Assembly: GCA_046481705.1 (NCBI GenBank)
Contig: JAWOJK010000038.1
Span: forward strand, 15,353-79,352
Source of the DNA: Desulfobacterales bacterium
GTDB taxonomy: Bacteria > Desulfobacterota > Desulfobacteria > Desulfobacterales > JAABRJ01
Length of the DNA: 64,000 bases
Direction of reading: 5' to 3'
Positions 22,493-62,360 of this stretch are shown here, piece by piece (position 1 is the first letter of the stretch; each line of letters begins with the position of its first letter). A program made the position numbers and the translations under genes. The notes beneath the pieces are model-generated. The model was given only the letters and a program-made list of their open reading frames with translations, had not been told where the DNA came from and did not search any database.

Positions 22493-23767
22493 CTACCGCT
22501 TCAGGGTTTGAATCGCCTTAAGGGCCATACCGGTTGCATTCTGGTTGCAGGAGACGACGTCGGCCGGCTTGTTGGCACACCCTGCTGCGAACATACCGCC
22601 CTTTTCAAAGTCGTTGATGATGAAACCATCGTCGGTATACTTCAGGTCAGCGGGAAGTTTTAGATTGGCCGCGGTCGGCTGCATGCCGGTTGCCAGGACC
22701 ACCATGTCAACCGTCTGGTGGATTTTTTCGCCGGTTACGGCATTTTCGGCCACCACCGTCAGATTGCCGGTGTGCGGGTCTTCGCTGACCTCCGCAACCT
22801 TGCCCTTGATCAGGAAGACATTCGGGTCCTCCTTGATTTTCTGGTAAAACTTTTCATAGCGCTGGCCCGGCGCCCTGAGATCGATGTAGAAGATATAAAC
22901 CTTTGCCTCTGGGTACTGTGCCCGGATATAGGTGGCATGCTTCAGGGAGGCCATGCAGCAGATGTAAGAGCAGTAGGGGAGATGGTTTTCGTCCCTGGAA
23001 CCGGCACACTGCACGAAGGCGATGCTTTGCGGTGCTTTGTCGTCGGAGGGCCGTTGGATCTTGCCCTGGGTCGGCCCATTGAAGGCCGCCATGCGCTCGA
23101 GCATCATGTTGGTGACAATGTTCTGATAGCGGCCGAAGCCCAGGTTGTCGATCCGGCTGGCATCGTAGGGTTCCCAGCCGGTTGCCCAGACAATCGCCCC
23201 GACCTGCAGGTTGAGGGTTTTGGGCTGCATCTCGAGATCGACCGCGTCATACTTGCAGGCGTCCTTGCAGCGCTGGGCGTCTTCGGTACCGATGATTTGG
23301 GGGCAAATCACGAACCTGGAGGGAAAGGCCATTGCGTGGGGCAGGTAGGCGCCCTTGCTGCGGTCCATCCCAAAATTGAAATCGTTGGCGATCTCGGTCT
23401 CGCAGGCCTCGGCGCAGGCGCCGCAGGCCGTGCAGTTTTCATTGACGTAGCGAGGGGTCATGCGCACGGCGACATCGTAGCTGCCGGGCGCACCGCTGAC
23501 CTTCTCGACTTCGGCAAGGGTCAGAATCTTGATCCTGGGGTTGTCTTTTATCCGCCTGAAATTGATTTCGAGCCCGCAGGTCGGGGGGCATAGCTTGGGA
23601 AAATATTGGTTCAGCTGCGCAACTCTGCCGCCCAGATACGGATTCTTTTCGACTAAAATCACCTCGTACCCCACTTCGGCAGCTTCAAGGGCCGTGGTCA
23701 ACCCGCTAATCCCTCCTCCAACAACCATAATGCTTCCGTTTGCAGGGGCTGCGTTGTCTAGTGTCAT
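22493..23767 (-). CDS. qmoA: quinone-interacting membrane-bound oxidoreductase subunit A (HdrA-like flavoprotein)
   Basis: VVGGGISGLTTALEAA FAD motif and 424 aa, located downstream of aprBA. Confidence 0.85.
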   Translation of the reverse strand: MTLDNAAPANGSIMVVGGGISGLTTALEAAEVGYEVILVEKNPYLGGRVAQLNQYFPKLCPPTCGLEINFRRIKDNPRIKILTLAEVEKVSGAPGSYDVAVRMTPRYVNENCTACGACAEACETEIANDFNFGMDRSKGAYLPHAMAFPSRFVICPQIIGTEDAQRCKDACKYDAVDLEMQPKTLNLQVGAIVWATGWEPYDASRIDNLGFGRYQNIVTNMMLERMAAFNGPTQGKIQRPSDDKAPQSIAFVQCAGSRDENHLPYCSYICCMASLKHATYIRAQYPEAKVYIFYIDLRAPGQRYEKFYQKIKEDPNVFLIKGKVAEVSEDPHTGNLTVVAENAVTGEKIHQTVDMVVLATGMQPTAANLKLPADLKYTDDGFIINDFEKGGMFAAGCANKPADVVSCNQNATGMALKAIQTLKR

Positions 23768-23793
23768 GCTATCCCTCCGTGCATAGTGTGTTT

Positions 23794-23969
23794 CCGTTGA
23801 TTAAGGGTCGCGGTAATAAATAATCCCACAAGATGGCGCCGGATTTTGGTCCGTCTACAAGGCACATTCGTCGGCGCATATCGAGATATGTGCCGGTGGG
23901 TGTAACGGCGGTGACGGGCAAAAAGACAAGCAAGATGTAGAATTATTTTTTGCCGAGTCCCTGAGGCGC
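23794..23969 (-). repeat. structured intergenic repeat, copy A (partner at 44196-44370)
   Basis: Hand alignment gives ~84% identity to the plus-strand copy. Central hairpin around CATATC-TC-GATATG. Ends 27 nt before the qmoA ATG. Confidence 0.7.
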
Positions 23970-24137
23970 TGACTGGCATGTGGGTGAACTTCGAATTTGC
24001 CATTGGAGGGCGGGATCGATCCAGACAGGTAATGGTACATAAAAAAGCATTCCCAGGCTTAAGAAACCTTTACTTTCCCTTGCGGGAAACCGTTTTCCCA
24101 CGCCCTCTCCGAGACGTTTCGGCTTGATCGTTTTAAT

Positions 24138-41347: not shown

Positions 41348-41475
41348 TCGTCCGTTCTGACCTTCAGGCCGGGGCCTGAAGCGCCATCAGGGTGGATACG
41401 ACGGGCCGGGCAAACCGACGCCGGTTGAAGATTGCGGCGTCCCGGGGCCTTACATCAAAAGACGAGGGGGGATGG

Positions 41476-44202
41476 ATGGCAAAGATCAGGATCTATGAGC
41501 TTGCCAGAGAACTCAACATGAAAAACAAAGCGCTGCTCGACAAATTGGCGGAATTGAAAATCTCCGTGCGCAGTCATATGAGTTCTCTGGAGGACGAGAC
41601 CGTGGCCCAAATCAAGCGCTCACTCTTCGGCAAGAAGGCTGCCGCCGTCGAAGTGACCCGCGTTCGGCCGACCGTCATTCGCCGCCGCAAACGGGACGTT
41701 GAAACACCGGAAAAAGAGGCCGTTGCCGCGCCCGAAGCCCCGTCGGAGGACATCACCGCTGTCGCAGCCGAGGCCCCGGCGGTGGAACCGGTGAGCAGTC
41801 AACCGGAACTCGAGGAAGCCGAAACCATTGAACCCCCCGAGGTTTCCCCCCTGCCCGAGACCCCGGTCGTTGAAGCGCCGGTTCCGGAGGCCCTCACCCC
41901 CGCCGCGGAATCGCAGCCCGAAGAAGCCCCCGCCGCGCCTGCTGCCGCTGAACCTGAAGCCCCGACCACCGACACCCCGGCAGAGGCACCCCAGATCATT
42001 GAAGCCGAAGTCCCAGCCCCTCCCGAAAAGCCCGCCAAGGCCAAGGTCGAAAAGCCGGCCAAGGTGAAACGCAAGAAAGGGGACACCATCGCCAAGATTA
42101 TCAGCCTGCCGACCCGGGAAGTGGTGCGGGCCCTCCAGGCGGAAAAGGAGGAGCGGGTCGAGGCCGAAGCCCCCGCGGCCAGAGTCGAGCGCAAGGTTGA
42201 CACCCCGGCCCCCGTGAGCCCCGAAGAAACGGCAGCACGCGAGGTTCGCAAGAAAAAAGGTAAAAAACGGGAGGAAGAGCCGGCCCCGGAAAAGAAGTTG
42301 GCCAAGAAAAAGGACGCCTTCCGCCGCAAGGAAGTCGTCGAAGGCGCCGATCTATATGCCAGCGGCGGCCGCGGCCGCAAGGGCCGCAAGGGCGGCAAGA
42401 TCAAGGTCGCCAAGGGCCAGAAAACGCAAATCACCACACCCAAGGCGATCAAGCGGCGGATCAAGGTCGACGACGCCATCGTGCTTTCCGAACTGGCCAA
42501 GCGCATGGGGATCAAGGCCAATGAGATCATCGGCAAGCTCATGGGGTTGGGGGTGATGGTGACCGTCAATCAAACCATCGATTACGAGACCGCCGTGCTG
42601 GTGGCATCGGAGTTTAATTTCGAAGTGGAGAAGGCCGCCTTTGAAGAGGAGACCATCCTGAAGGCCGCAACGGATGAACCGGATCAGCTGTTGCCCCGCC
42701 CGCCCGTGGTCACCATCATGGGCCACGTCGACCACGGCAAGACCTCGCTGCTGGACGTCATCCGCCAAACGCGCGTGACGGAAGGCGAAGCCGGCGGCAT
42801 CACCCAGCATATCGGCGCCTACAACGTCTCGACCCCCAGGGGGCAGATCGTTTTTCTGGACACCCCCGGTCATGAGGCGTTTACCGCGATGCGCGCCCGC
42901 GGGGCGCAGGTAACCGACATCGTCATCCTGGTGGTCGCAGCCGACGACGGGGTCATGCCCCAGACCATCGAGGCCATCAACCACGCCAAGGCATCCGAGG
43001 TGCCGATCATCGTCGCGGTCAACAAGATGGACAAACCCAATGCCGATCCCGACCGCGTTCAGCGGCAGCTGGCCGAAGTCGGTCTGATGCCGGAGGACTG
43101 GGGCGGGGACACCATTTTTGTCAAGGTTTCCGCCAAACAGAACCAGGGAATTGACGGCCTGCTGGAAATGATCCTGCTCCAATCCGAAGTTCTGGAGCTC
43201 AAGGCCAACCCCAACAAGCTGGCCAGCGGGCACGTGGTGGAGTCCAAGCTGGATTCCGGCCGCGGACCGGTGGCCACGATCCTGATCCAGGACGGCACCC
43301 TGCGAGCCGGGGACCCCATCGTGTGCGGCATCTACTCCGGCAAGGTGCGGGCGATGCTCAACGACCTCGGGCTGCCGGTGGATGAGGCCGGCCCGTCGAT
43401 TCCGGTGGAAATTTTAGGCCTCACCGGAGTTCCGGGCGCCGGCGACGAATTCGTGGCTCTGGCCGATGAAAAGAACGCCCGGCAGGTCAGCCAGCACCGT
43501 GCGCAGAAGCAACGCGCCAAGGAGCTGGCCAAAACCAGCCGGGTCAGCCTCGAAAGCCTCTTTGAAAGGATGAAAGAGGGCGAGGTCAAGGACCTCAACC
43601 TGATCATCAAGGCCGATGTGGACGGCTCCATCGAAGCCCTGCGGGATTCCCTGATCAAGCTGTCCAACGAAGAGGTTAAAATCAACGTGATCCACGCCGC
43701 CACCGGCACCATCACGGAATCCGATGTTTCCCTGGCCGCCGTTTCCGATGCGATCATCATCGGCTTCAACGTCCGCCCCAACACCAAGGTGGCGGAAATG
43801 GCAAACGAGGAGCATGTCGACGTTCGCTACCACAACATCATCTACAACGTGATCAAAGAGGTCAAGGACGCGATCGTCGGCATGATGGAGTCGACTTACG
43901 AGGAACGGATCCTGGGCCTGGCCGAAGTCCGTGAGGTCTTTCACGTACCCAAGGTCGGCGCCATCGCCGGCGCCTACGTGACCGAGGGCAAAATCGAGCG
44001 CGGGCAGCGGGTGCGCCTGCTGCGCGACGGCATCATCCAGTTCGAGGGCAAGATCGCGTCGCTGCGGCGCTTCAAGGATGATGTCAAAGAGGTCCTGCGC
44101 GGCTACGAGTGCGGTATCGGGATCGAGAACTACAACGATATCAAGGTCGGGGACGAAATTCAGTGCTTCTTCCTCGAAGAAATCAAACCGGCGCTGGCCT
44201 GA
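41476..44202 (+). CDS. infB: translation initiation factor IF-2
   Basis: [14 protein letters not shown] start, G-domain [14 protein letters not shown] / DTPGHEAF / NKMD, and a Pro/Ala/Glu-rich N-terminal region. Confidence 0.9.
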
Positions 44203-44370
44203 GGGCCCCGGAAAAAAATAATTCCGTAACCTTGCTTGTCTTTTGGCCCGTCACCTGCGTTACATTCGCCGACACATATCTCGATATGCGTCGGCGAATG
44301 CGCCTTGGTGACAAACCAAAATCCGGCGCAATTTTGTGGAATTATTTATTCCCGCGACCCTGATAACCGG
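44196..44370 (+). repeat. structured intergenic repeat, copy B (partner at 23794-23969, minus strand)
   Basis: ~84% identity to copy A by hand alignment. Has a 16-bp stem with one mismatch around CATATC-TC-GATATG. Starts at the infB stop and ends 16 nt before the DUF503 ATG. Confidence 0.7.
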
Positions 44371-44385
44371 CGAGGGAAAGCCCCC

Positions 44386-44673
44386 ATGGTGGTCGGAATC
44401 GGCATCATTACCTTCAGGCTGCACGACTGTCACAGCCTGAAGGCCAAGCGCAGGATCGTTAAAACGATCATTTCCCAGATCCGCAACAATTTCAACGCAT
44501 CGGTGGCGGAGGTCGGCGCCAACGATATCCACCAGCGGGCTGAAATCGGCTTTTCACTCACGGGCAACGACCGTCAGCTGATCAACTCAAAGGTCGATAA
44601 GATATTCAACCTGGCGGAGGACCTGGGGCTGGCCGAAGTCATCGATACGGAAATGGAGCTCATCAGCATATGA
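44386..44673 (+). CDS. DUF503 (YlxP-like) protein
   Basis: MVVGIGIITFRLHDCHSLKAKR... is typical of the small gene between infB and rbfA. Confidence 0.7.
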   Translation: MVVGIGIITFRLHDCHSLKAKRRIVKTIISQIRNNFNASVAEVGANDIHQRAEIGFSLTGNDRQLINSKVDKIFNLAEDLGLAEVIDTEMELISI

Positions 44674-56827: not shown

Positions 56828-57535
56828 ATGGACATCGAGCAAAAACTCGCGCTGTTGGACCAAATCGACGGCCTCTACGACGCGTATGCGGCCACCCTGG
56901 ACCTGGCCTGCCACAAGGGCTGCGATAGCTGCTGCACCCGAAACGTGACCCTGACCACCCTGGAGGTTTACCGACTGCTGGCGCGACTTTCCCCCGAGCG
57001 CTGCGACCCCCTGCTGGCACGTGTAGCGGCCCACGCCGCAAGAAACCGCTTCCGACCGGCCGTCACCACCAACCAGCTGGCGGACCTCTGTCTCGCGGGC
57101 GAAGACCCACCGGAGGAAGACGTCGATCCCGGGTGGGGTCCCTGCCCGCTTCTGACGGCCTCGGTCTGCCCGGTCTACCCGCTGCGCCCCTTTGGCTGCC
57201 GCAGCTTTACTTCCGGGCGCAACTGCGCCCAAAGCGGCTGCGCCGAGGTGACCCCCCTGACGGTGACCGTCAACACTGTTTTCCTGCAGGCCATCGAGCA
57301 CCTCGACCAGGCGGGCTGCAGCGGTAACTTTTCAGACCTGCTGCAGGTTTTGGCGCCGGCCGGCGCCCGTCAGGACTACCGCAACGGCAGCCTGGGCTGC
57401 AGGGCAAACGGCCTGATCCCCAACCGCCCCGCCAAAATCCTGATGGTCCCCCCCGCGCACCGCGCGCAGGCTGGCCCATGGGTTGCGCAACTCCAGTGTC
57501 TGCTGCGTCTGGGTGAAGGCCCCTGCAAAAAATAA
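56828..57535 (+). CDS. YkgJ/UPF0153-type Cys-cluster protein (paralog 4)
   Basis: Motifs CHKGCDSCC and CPLLTASVCPVYPLRPFGCRSF. Confidence 0.7.
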   Translation: MDIEQKLALLDQIDGLYDAYAATLDLACHKGCDSCCTRNVTLTTLEVYRLLARLSPERCDPLLARVAAHAARNRFRPAVTTNQLADLCLAGEDPPEEDVDPGWGPCPLLTASVCPVYPLRPFGCRSFTSGRNCAQSGCAEVTPLTVTVNTVFLQAIEHLDQAGCSGNFSDLLQVLAPAGARQDYRNGSLGCRANGLIPNRPAKILMVPPAHRAQAGPWVAQLQCLLRLGEGPCKK

Positions 57536-57674
57536 TTCCTGATCTCGGGTGTCTTTTTGCTCCCCCTGGCCGCTACCGGCGGCAGGCGCCTTTCAGGCAA
57601 ACCTTTTGGGGGCAGCGGCCGATAAAGAGAAAAGTCACCTTTTTTGCGAGAAAACGGGTAAGTGGAGTTGCCCA

Positions 57675-58406
57675 ATGAACGCGATCTGGAGGAAGCGCCT
57701 GGCCCTGTCCGGCATCCTGGTGAGCCTGGCGCTTTGGCCGGACCTGTCGCACCCGGCGTTTTACAAATATGTCGATAAAGACGGCCAGACCCGGTATGTG
57801 GACGATGCCGGCAAGATCCCGCCGGAGTATCGCCAAGACCTGACCACCTACAAGGAACGCGATGATCACCTTACGCCGGAAGAACGGGAGGCCCTGCGGC
57901 GCAGGGAGCGCCAGCGACAGATTCCGGCAGGGGCGTCACCGCGGGTCACCGGCACTCCCGCAGAAGCGCCCCCCAACCGCTCGGAGCACTTTACCGGCAC
58001 CCGCAACCCGGATGCGGACACCTTCGAAACCCGGGTGATCATTCGGGGCAACCAGGTGCTGGTGCCGGTCACCCTGGACTACGAGGGCAACCAGGTCGAG
58101 GCGCTGCTGCTGCTGGATACCGGCGCGTCGCTGATCGCGCTGCATGAGGAGGTGGCCCAGGGGTTGAAAATACGGAACACCCAGCAGGCGACGGCGCAGG
58201 TGGTCGGCGGTAAAAGCATCCCCTTCAAACTGGCTACCCTGAGCTTTGTGCAGGTGGGCCCCGTGCGCGTAAACAACCTGCGGGCCGGGATCATCCGCCA
58301 CAGCGGCGGACGCTCGCACTTCAAGGGGCTGCTGGGAATGAATTTCCTGCGCAACGTGGACTACAGCATCGATTTCAAACGGCAGGTCATCACCTGGCGG
58401 CTGTGA
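57675..58406 (+). CDS. retropepsin-like (clan AA, TIGR02281-type) aspartic protease with N-terminal DUF4124-like segment
   Basis: Signal/TM at the N-terminus, FYKYVDKDGQTRYVDD, and catalytic LLLDTGAS. Confidence 0.7.
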   Translation: MNAIWRKRLALSGILVSLALWPDLSHPAFYKYVDKDGQTRYVDDAGKIPPEYRQDLTTYKERDDHLTPEEREALRRRERQRQIPAGASPRVTGTPAEAPPNRSEHFTGTRNPDADTFETRVIIRGNQVLVPVTLDYEGNQVEALLLLDTGASLIALHEEVAQGLKIRNTQQATAQVVGGKSIPFKLATLSFVQVGPVRVNNLRAGIIRHSGGRSHFKGLLGMNFLRNVDYSIDFKRQVITWRL

Positions 58407-58526
58407 GGGCCCCGGCAAAAAAAAGGCCACGGCTTGCGTGTCTTTTTGCCGGCCTACAGCGTCATATCCTCCCCCGCCCGGCGCGTCATGGTCGGCGTGC
58501 CAAAACCCCCTGGGCGGAGTTCGTCT

Positions 58527-59366
58527 TCACAGGTCCAGCAGGCGGGCTGCGTTTTCACCACAGATGCTGTCGCGCGCGGCCCGGGAGAGCCCGGCAGCCG
58601 CCATTTCCGTGAAATAACGGGCGGGGCTGAGGAGCGGATAATCGCTGCCGAAAAGAATTTTTTCGCTGCCGATAATTTCACAGGCCACCCGATAGACATC
58701 CGGGTCGTAGAGATACGGTGAGGCGGCCGTGTCGAAGTAGACGTTTTGCAGCGACGCCTTGACCTCTTTTTTGAGCAGCTGATAAAAAAAGAGCCCGCCC
58801 CCCCAGTGGGCCAGCACGATTTTGTTTGCGGGAAAACGCCTGACCAAATCGTAAATCTGCCGCAGGGTGTTGGGGGTTTTGCCGGGATAGAGATGACCGA
58901 CGGGTTCGTTGGTATGAATCAGGGCGATCATCCCTTTCGCCAAACACAGCGCCATCAGGGGCGCCAACTTGTCCAGGGCGGCGGCGTCGATGCCGGACTG
59001 GTAGAAGGCCAGTTCCCCGATGCCGGACAACCCGCCGTCCAGACAGCGATGGGTCTCCGCTTCGGCCTGCGGGCTGAAGGGATCCAGACAGCAGAGACCG
59101 ACCAGCCGCTGGGGATAGCGCCCCACCGCATCCAGCACATAGTCATTGTTGAGCCGCGCAGTTTGGGCATCCCGCCATGGAAAACCGAAAACAATCGACC
59201 GGTCGACCCCCTGGGCATCCATGGCCGCAACCAGTTCCTGGGCCCCGACCAGTCGGGCTTTGGGGGAGGCGTAAAGCAGTTCGAAGGCCGGTTCGCCCCG
59301 AAAAAATTTTTCCCGGTCTTGGCGAACCGCGGCCGGGAAGATGTGCGTGTGGCAATCGATGATCAT
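58527..59366 (-). CDS. amidohydrolase-family (TIM-barrel metal-dependent hydrolase) protein
   Basis: MIIDCHTHIFP N-terminus, with later HW.GG and GSDYP motifs. Confidence 0.75.
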   Translation of the reverse strand: MIIDCHTHIFPAAVRQDREKFFRGEPAFELLYASPKARLVGAQELVAAMDAQGVDRSIVFGFPWRDAQTARLNNDYVLDAVGRYPQRLVGLCCLDPFSPQAEAETHRCLDGGLSGIGELAFYQSGIDAAALDKLAPLMALCLAKGMIALIHTNEPVGHLYPGKTPNTLRQIYDLVRRFPANKIVLAHWGGGLFFYQLLKKEVKASLQNVYFDTAASPYLYDPDVYRVACEIIGSEKILFGSDYPLLSPARYFTEMAAAGLSRAARDSICGENAARLLDL

Positions 59367-61700: not shown

Positions 61701-61796
61701 CGGCCTGATAGGCATGCCCGGCGACACCCGGCCGGGGCAGTAAGCGGGGGTGCAGAGGGTGACGTTTTTCTGACTACGGGTTTTTCTTTTGCGAAA

Positions 61797-61960
61797 ATTG
61801 ATGGACCGGTAAAAAGTCAAAATTTGAGATGGCGGTGAAAAAAGGCCAAGTTCAAGGCGCGCAAATCTCGAGGAGTGAGGCGTACTTAAGGTACGCCGCA
61901 GCGACTTCGAGATGCAGCGCAACGCAGAAATTGGACTTTTTACGCCGCCATCAAAATTGG
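61797..61960. repeat. rod-like palindromic repeat, copy 1 (palindrome core 61828-61952)
   Basis: Outer stem GATGGCGGTGAAAAAAGGCCAA / TTGGACTTTTTACGCCGCCATC. The inner ~80 nt is nearly identical to copy 2. Confidence 0.75.
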
Positions 61961-62201
61961 CTGTTTGCAGAACGTCTGGTGGGAGGATTTGAGCGCAGAG
62001 ACGAGCAGGCTGATGTTTGACGGGATAGTGGCTTACAAAGGCTCGCCGTTCCGGCGGCCCCACCCGCAGCACGGTCGCCGGGAACCGACAGCGCCACTGA
62101 AAGCAGTTGTCGGGGGGAAGCACCAGCACCCGGTTGTGGAGTGTGTAAAATCAGTCTTGCCCGGGACGGTAACCGCCGGCTTGGTCTTCACCCAATCAAA
62201 T

Positions 62202-62360
62202 ATTGATGAACCGGTTAAAAGTCAAAATCCAGACAGTTTCGTAAAATGGCCAAGTTCAAGGCGCGCAAATCTCGAGGAGTGAGGCGTACTTATGTACGCC
62301 GCAGCGACTTCAAGATGCGGCGCAACGCAGAAATTGGCCATTTTACGGAACTGTCGAATA
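62202..62360. repeat. rod-like palindromic repeat, copy 2 (palindrome core 62232-62355)
   Basis: Outer stem GACAGTTTCGTAAAATGGCCAA / TTGGCCATTTTACGGAACTGTC (22 bp, one G-U). Ends 27 nt after the atpF stop. Confidence 0.75.

Follow-up and report, generated by a model that had tools for sequence, protein, structure and literature searches.

The two repeat copies that lie upstream of qmoA and of the DUF503 gene in the window (by which we mean the whole 64-kb stretch of DNA analysed here) are very probably members of a dispersed MITE family, that is, 157-bp, non-coding, non-autonomous DNA transposons that sit at these two sites as tolerated passengers. The elements are small, within the ~50-800 bp typical of MITEs, and non-coding, possess terminal inverted repeats and a target duplication, occur as dispersed copies, and are polymorphic in their insertion, all of which are features by which MITEs are recognised. 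The kind of element is already known, while the Desulfobacterales family is new; in the literature searched, we found no earlier description of a Desulfobacterales MITE or of an element in the apr-qmo spacer. A conserved regulatory role of the element in apr/qmo expression is not supported, though the element may yet act in some way as a single strand or as RNA.

Two full copies and two relics in the window

The original prediction described a homologous repeat pair of about 84% identity, and three analyses agree that this pair is real. Copies A (minus strand) and B (plus strand) share a mean column identity of 84% when 23760-24000 is aligned with 44165-44405 in MAFFT; blastn gives 84.3% over 166 nt (E 1.4e-45); and a repeat search of the window recovers the two as inverted arms of 148 nt that are 82% complementary. 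The exact boundaries were set by 85-92 aligned copies together with empty sites in related genomes, and they lie slightly inside the limits first given for the pair (23794-23969 and 44196-44370), at 23805-23961 and 44203-44360.

Copy A is full length (157 nt, 23805-23961, minus strand) and is located between the aprA terminator and qmoA, with support from nhmmer, a covariance model (CM) and an empty site; this segment plus one TNA is exactly what the empty site of the relatives is missing. The forward strand of the element is co-directional with qmoA, as seen from an nhmmer score of 161 bits on the minus strand versus 50 bits on the plus strand; the CM R1 score is 142 bits. Its 5' terminal inverted repeat, GGGACTCGGCAAAAAATAATTCTAC, occupies 23937-23961 and its 3' terminal inverted repeat, GTGGGATTATTTATTACCGCGACCC, occupies 23805-23829 (both minus strand), as defined by pattern matches at both ends and by the alignments. 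The flanking target duplicates, again on the minus strand, are TCA on the 5' side (23962-23964), a mutated TTA, and TTA on the 3' side (23802-23804); in the related contig L126, TTA is retained on both sides of the element.

Copy B, also full length (158 nt, 44203-44360, plus strand), lies between infB and the DUF503 gene and scores 158.6 bits with nhmmer and 163 bits with CM R1; the corresponding site is empty in L133, L135 and L136. Its target duplicates on the plus strand are both TGA, and the 5' one (44200-44202) doubles as the stop codon of infB (ORF 41392-44202), while the 3' one is found at 44361-44363.

As claimed, the two copies are oriented alike with respect to the gene that follows each of them, but the distances needed correction: from the end of copy A to the ATG of qmoA there are 37 nt rather than 27 nt, and from the end of copy B to that of DUF503 25 nt rather than 16 nt, where each of the new values counts the 3-bp duplicated target. 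The element is non-coding, as had been proposed; DUF503 begins at the same ATG in homologues with an empty site, frames are closed in copy A, and gene starts are unchanged in genomes with the empty site. The aprA terminator expected upstream of copy A is present at 24172-24143 on the minus strand; it is a conserved feature, separate from the element.

Two truncated copies bring the content of the window to two full and two truncated copies. The first is a relic of the 5' 46 nt (model positions 2-47) at 57518-57563 on the plus strand, recovered by nhmmer (E 3.5e-7) and by the repeat search, and it lies immediately 3' of a TGA stop codon. The second, a truncated or decayed relic covering model positions 1-66 (58407-58471, plus strand; nhmmer E 7.5e-9, with an 18-mer match at 1 mismatch), lies immediately 3' of the TGA stop of the ORF 57675-58406, and may extend in decayed form to ~58526. 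It may in fact be a decayed full copy placed exactly between the stops of two convergent genes, these being TGA at 58404-58406 (ORF 57675-58406) and TCA at 58527-58529 (minus-strand ORF 58527-59366). Running the family CM R1 on the window with filters off revealed no copies beyond the two full ones, only generic hairpins at 20-25 bits.

The window also contains a second, unrelated long-hairpin repeat at 61795-61960 and 62199-62350 (plus strand), with units 404 nt apart and cores that are 93-98% identical. The first unit folds as one long hairpin (-85.7 kcal/mol, z -6.6), and the repeat may represent another MITE-like family.

Anatomy and distribution of the family

Among the full copies with unique flanking sequences (92, a lower bound, to which partial copies must be added), the length is 157 nt in 66, and the boundaries are sharp on the alignment. 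The terminal inverted repeats are roughly 25 nt long and read GGGCCCCGGCAAAAAATAATTCC ... GGAATTATTTCTTACCGTGACCC; the family consensus ends are GGGCCCCGGCAAAAAATAATTCCAC...GTGGAATTATTTCTTACCGTGACCC, and the inverted-repeat ends of the element are GGGNCNCGGNAAWAAATAATTCC. In the window, CGGNAAWAAATAATYC is present at both ends of both full copies in opposite orientation. The pattern CGGCAAAAAATAATTC, with up to 3 mismatches, matches both ends of both copies, where 0.6 chance matches are expected in the window.

The elements are flanked by a 3-bp direct repeat of the form TNA. The triplet is the same on both sides in 67 of the 92 copies, differs by one base in 21 and by more in 4; as estimated from base frequencies, the middle bases alone would match by chance in ~36% of copies. 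On the 5' side, the triplet is TAA in 37 copies, TTA in 32, TGA in 8 and TCA in 4. Some shorter or rearranged versions were also observed: a 30-nt fusion of both termini with TTA/TTA flanks (L248:12048, minus strand), a 60-nt version with an internal deletion and TGA/TGA flanks (L173:885, plus strand), and a fold-back built from two 3' arms (L251:4338, minus strand). In the internal-deletion derivatives in L248 and L173, both the ends and the duplication are intact.

Further copies turned out to be many, both in species-representative genomes and in metagenome contigs. The collection of species-representative genomes was scanned with a pattern from the conserved 5' part of the element; this pattern is A/T-rich, and most of the 117 rows listed are chance matches in Bacteroidota and similar groups. 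Among the matches listed, at least 19 are full-length copies with 69-90% identity in MAGs labelled Desulfobacterales, Desulfobacteraceae or 'delta proteobacterium', with one further full copy in a MAG labelled Chromatiaceae; the full-length copies span at least 10 species-level genomes, several of which have more than one copy. AprA, QmoA, InfB and DUF503 genes are encoded at none of the genome-scan loci listed, and the contexts are thus unrelated to those in the window. A scan of JGI metagenome contigs with the terminal-repeat pattern, covering at least 120 contigs, added at least 88 full and at least 33 partial copies, many of the latter being cut by contig ends.

Two of the genome-scan loci deserve mention in their own right. 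The copy in the contig binned as Chromatiaceae (Gammaproteobacteria; L065:7317-7475) is divergent, at 119 bits, and points either to mis-binning of the contig or to a broader range of hosts. One Desulfobacterales MAG carries three full copies in the same orientation, ~900 nt apart and with small ORFs between them (L068:1347-3301), a spacing that resembles the 889-nt gap between the relics at 57518 and 58407 in the window.

A search of the fetched loci, of plasmids and of viral contigs yielded no autonomous partner sharing the ends of the element. Where terminal repeats lie outside a MITE copy, or where ORFs follow a 5'-partial copy, none of the neighbouring ORFs looked transposase-like when judged by eye; an all-against-all comparison of 1060 ORFs from ~1 Mb of fetched Desulfobacterales loci revealed no repeated transposase ORF, only syntenic orthologues; and neither plasmids (searched by blastn) nor viral contigs (scanned with the terminal-repeat pattern) gave any matches. 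We suggest that a transposase encoded elsewhere would recognise the ~25-bp terminal inverted repeats, and that this enzyme may be a DDE transposase of the IS5 / PIF-Harbinger kind, to judge only from the 3-bp TNA duplication.

The resemblance to Tourist-like MITEs, PIF/Harbinger and IS5 (IS1031-type) elements likewise concerns the 3-bp, T-W-A-centred duplication and nothing else. PIF/Harbinger transposons have a 3-bp target duplication of 5'-TWA-3' (PMC4482050), and the IS1031-group members of the IS5 family have a three-nucleotide insertion site (PMC2516522); the bacterial IS5 elements compared in PMC4482050, however, have the target ANT, which is different from TNA.

By behaviour, the closest described analogue is Chunjie, a MITE found in Geobacter uraniireducens Rf4 (Chen et al. 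2008), which measures 178-235 bp and, according to a review (PMC10969869), has one copy inside an operon with the structure undisturbed. The same review (PMC10969869) describes features that recur in the Desulfobacterales element, namely conserved terminal inverted repeats with direct repeats, and dozens of intergenic plus partial copies; both are bacterial MITEs, in related groups formerly placed in the 'delta-proteobacteria'. Compared by description, the element presented here differs from Chunjie in its length of 157 bp, its TNA duplication and its full-length pairing.

A further likeness is to the Correia elements (CREE) of Neisseria, which are also about 100-200 bp long, end in terminal inverted repeats and occur between genes in many copies. 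The target that Correia elements duplicate is TA, and they contain an IHF site and have promoter-like ends. The Desulfobacterales element, in contrast, duplicates TNA, has no promoter consensus, and belongs to a different host phylum. Correia elements are transcribed into hairpins that can be cleaved by RNase and are able to alter the expression of neighbouring genes (PMC10969869).

Empty sites, stop codons and the spacer upstream of qmoA

QmoA homologues form a tight clade at 94-98% identity, with the next drop to 85%; no record identical to the QmoA protein of the window was found, and homologues were used for the comparison. The closest QmoA, at 98% identity, is encoded on eight NCBI MAG contigs (L118-L125), and on these the spacer between aprA and qmoA measures 275 nt, whereas it is 435 nt long in the window. 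Aligned, the two differ by a clean gap, with CAGTCAGCGCC-TCA-(157 nt)-TTA-ATCAACGG in the window where the relatives have CAGTCAGCGCC-TTA-ATCAACGG; the empty site, GCGCC-TTA-ATCAACGG, has a single TTA in L118-L125, and the element is likewise absent in L259, L260 and L262. The infB-DUF503 spacer was compared in contigs that encode a DUF503 protein identical to that of the window (L133-L138). Here, the spacer is 22 nt with a single TGA, the infB stop, in L133-L136, versus 183 nt when filled (L137, L138 and the window), and the empty site reads GGCG-TGA-TAACCGG in L133, L135 and L136. Filled and empty spacers thus show that each insertion adds the element plus one TNA, 157 + 3 nt for copy A and 158 + 3 nt for copy B, and the presence of empty sites in close relatives at both spots argues for a mobile insertion and against a conserved control element.

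Insertion takes place at TNA, mostly TAA or TTA, and the triplet is duplicated. In 18 of the 92 copies, one of the two triplets serves, in frame, as the stop codon of an open frame 100 codons or more in length, while control frames gave 13 of 368; ten of these stop-codon cases are on the 5' side of the element and eight on the 3' side. Copy B, on the infB stop codon, belongs to this group. TAA and TGA both match the target, and a stop is restored when the triplet is duplicated, so that insertions of this kind leave the protein intact; we suggest that this is why insertions at gene ends and in operon spacers, which are enriched, would be tolerated. A crude ORF heuristic places 85 of the 92 copies between genes. 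Relative to the flanking genes, neither orientation is significantly favoured, with 14 forward versus 6 reverse copies between co-directional genes, nor is one favoured at stop codons (10 versus 8).

The spacer between aprA and qmoA has been struck more than once. In L126 (QmoA 97% identical) and L127-L132 (96%), the element occupies the same TTA in the orientation opposite to that of copy A; in L126, nhmmer gives 153 bits on the strand opposite qmoA versus 47 bits on the qmoA strand. In L261, a reverse copy abuts TAA-TCAACGG, using an overlapping TNA that is offset by 1 bp in CTTAAT; because of this offset, and because it is without the variants common to the other copies at the site, we take it to be an independent insertion. 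The opposite orientations and the copy offset by 1 bp identify the aprA-qmoA site as an insertion hot spot, with CTTAAT located 34-37 nt upstream of qmoA, and copy A lies in this hot spot.

How the copies at the hot spot are related to each other can be read in two ways. The window, L126 and L127 copies share four variants that are found in 0-2 of 83 other copies, and this fits either a single old insertion, flipped afterwards or excised and inserted anew, or a source copy specific to the clade. A flip of this sort, had it taken place, would not be explained by simple cut-and-paste. Within a spacer that is otherwise conserved, the L127/L130 copy has diverged until only about 70% of its positions match the other copies, which argues against sequence constraint on the element at aprA-qmoA. 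Between L118, where the site is empty, and L126, where it is filled, the nucleotide identity of qmoA is 99.7%, and the window is 95.4% identical to both. As a separate observation, aprA is 97.8% identical between L118 and L126, against 99.7% for qmoA; this mosaic pattern suggests homologous recombination between strains near the insertion site.

Two roles had been proposed for the element, namely that of a processing site by which the ratio of aprBA to qmoABC is set and that of a 5' leader for qmo. Neither is supported, in view of its absence in L118-L125, L259, L260 and L262 and its inversion in L126, L127-L132 and L261; its absence at infB-DUF503 in genomes with an identical DUF503 protein; and the conservation of the spacer while the old copy decayed to about 70% identity. 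We believe that at both sites in the window the element is most likely a tolerated passenger, which would add a stable hairpin to the transcript.

The hairpin and alternative explanations

The whole 157 nt make up one long imperfect palindrome, which was overlooked at first. Copy B folds at -81.6 kcal/mol (z -7.3), and copy A at -49.5 kcal/mol (z -2.0). The core hairpin predicted originally, CAUAU-CUCG-AUAUG, is real, and so is the stem position that is G:C in copy A and A:T in copy B. The different outer pairings ascribed to copy A can also be seen, but they are partly a register shift: copy A combines a 5' arm from the GTCACC subfamily with a 3' arm from the GTAGAC one, and these mixed arms account both for the weaker fold and for the different outer pairings.

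To describe the structure of the family, the folded consensus was laid on the 85-copy alignment; RNAalifold with default settings on the 85 sequences missed the long hairpin. The hairpin has 63 pairs, and 82.8% of cells are paired, versus 33-44% when the partners are slid by 1-3 columns; helix 1 (25 pairs, columns 1-28 with 141-166) is 84.6% paired. In total, 28 pairs are changed on both sides, versus 17.1 +/- 2.0 in shuffles, and 135 cells are changed on both sides, versus 53.6 +/- 5.2, with none of 500 shuffles reaching the observed value. Our reading of the 85-copy alignment distinguishes three subfamilies separated by compensatory substitutions, with GTCACC/GGTGAC versus GTCTAC/GTAGAC, TTTTGG/CCAAAA versus TTATGG/CCATAA, and CCGCC/GGCGG versus CCACC/GGTGG. 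The pairing is strand-asymmetric: on the forward strand 82.8% of pairs are canonical and the RNA folds at a mean of -58.5 kcal/mol, as against 93.4% and -79.9 kcal/mol on the reverse strand, and six consensus mismatches are C.A or A.C on the forward strand, hence G.U on the reverse strand only. As pairing is kept by compensatory changes, symmetry or single-strand folding would seem to matter for propagating source copies. The idea of selection on structure, originally drawn from the two window copies, therefore stands for the family, where compensatory changes separate the subfamilies, but not for these two loci in particular.

This raises the question of whether the element, while mobile, has also been exapted, so that its hairpin acts in the RNA wherever it is inserted. 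Such a hairpin could stabilise the mRNA or be processed by an enzyme of the RNase III type at the aprBA/qmoABC and infB/DUF503-rbfA junctions, and insertions would then be kept because they tune the stability of segments within operons. The hairpin is very stable, compensatory changes maintain its pairing, its mismatches are strand-asymmetric and G.U-like, the spot upstream of qmoA has been occupied repeatedly in several lineages, and the hairpins of Neisseria MITEs are known RNase targets (PMC10969869). Set against this, presence is polymorphic even among near-identical genomes, both orientations occur at the same site, orientation shows no significant bias (14 versus 6 between co-directional genes, 10 versus 8 at stop codons), and the old L127/L130 copy has fallen to about 70% identity within a conserved spacer. 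On balance, we consider exaptation unlikely.

Full-length compensated pairing and strand asymmetry are nonetheless features that a parasitic element does not require, and the CTTAAT hot spot upstream of qmoA occurs empty, filled forward and filled reverse among close relatives. One may speculate, with little confidence, that the family is under selection for a strand-specific full-length hairpin and that the hot spot is a natural switch for qmoABC expression between strains of sulfate reducers. If true, strand-specific selection would imply either a single-stranded (ssDNA or RNA) stage of propagation or a host-level RNA function at gene ends.

That the element is instead a conserved cis-regulatory RNA, a dedicated apr-qmo leader or processing element with a second copy upstream of DUF503, is very improbable. 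It is structured, and it does lie in the 5' region of qmoA, downstream of the strong aprA terminator; yet the qmoA site is empty in the closest relatives and inverted in others, so that this explanation is already contradicted by the empty sites, and there are more than 100 copies in unrelated contexts, carrying a target duplication and terminal inverted repeats. Nor is there a match in Rfam 15, either for the element at gathering score or at E <= 1 over 44150-44420; in the window, 4 tRNAs alone reach gathering score. A sigma-70 promoter scan detected no signal in the element above chance, and an intrinsic terminator scan found none inside either element, only the separate aprA terminator at 24172-24143. 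A candidate sigma-54 promoter at the TTGGCCC...TGC stretch was rejected by eye, copy A being without the GG.

The element also shares traits with ERIC/IRU and REP/BIME sequences of enterobacteria, which are imperfect palindromes in transcribed intergenic regions, often after stops or within operons; unlike these, it has clear transposon hallmarks, and it has no similarity to any curated RNA family. The first reading of the repeat as REP/BIME-like was apt as far as a dispersed intergenic palindrome goes, but not as to the family, since ends that are inverted repeats, together with a 3-bp duplication and empty sites that are exact, mark a MITE. Equally hard to credit, then, is a host-domesticated extragenic palindrome of the REP/BIME type, spread by a RAYT (IS200/IS605-like, Y1) acting on single-stranded hairpins, even if the strand-asymmetric pairing is compatible with a single-strand mechanism. 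REP/BIME units are associated with RAYT genes; REPs are 20-40 nt long, without recognised terminal inverted repeats or a target duplication, and Y1 enzymes insert without duplication. The element here is 157 nt long, and thus far larger than REPs; its terminal repeats measure 25 nt, and the empty sites bear out its 3-bp duplication. Finally, the idea that some larger insertion sequence or prophage has left the same fragment at two places by chance has the existence of the repeat in its favour and nothing further, and its probability is negligible given the identical boundaries in 92 copies, empty sites that remove exactly 157-158 nt plus 3 nt, the lack of phage or plasmid matches, and flanks consisting of ordinary housekeeping genes.

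Once copies A and B are recognised as MITE insertions, the dissimilatory sulfate-reduction locus loses a candidate 'novel regulatory RNA', and the 160-bp variation in the length of the aprA-qmoA spacer between close relatives is accounted for. The many copies at contig ends indicate that the repeat breaks metagenome assemblies of these Desulfobacterales. The family provides a clean bacterial example of a Tourist/Harbinger-style MITE that duplicates TNA, of insertion exactly onto stop codons with the duplication restoring the stop, and of repeated insertion, in two orientations, at one hot spot in a core energy-metabolism operon. The filled and empty alleles are ready strain markers, and they constitute a natural experiment on a 157-nt hairpin in the qmo leader.
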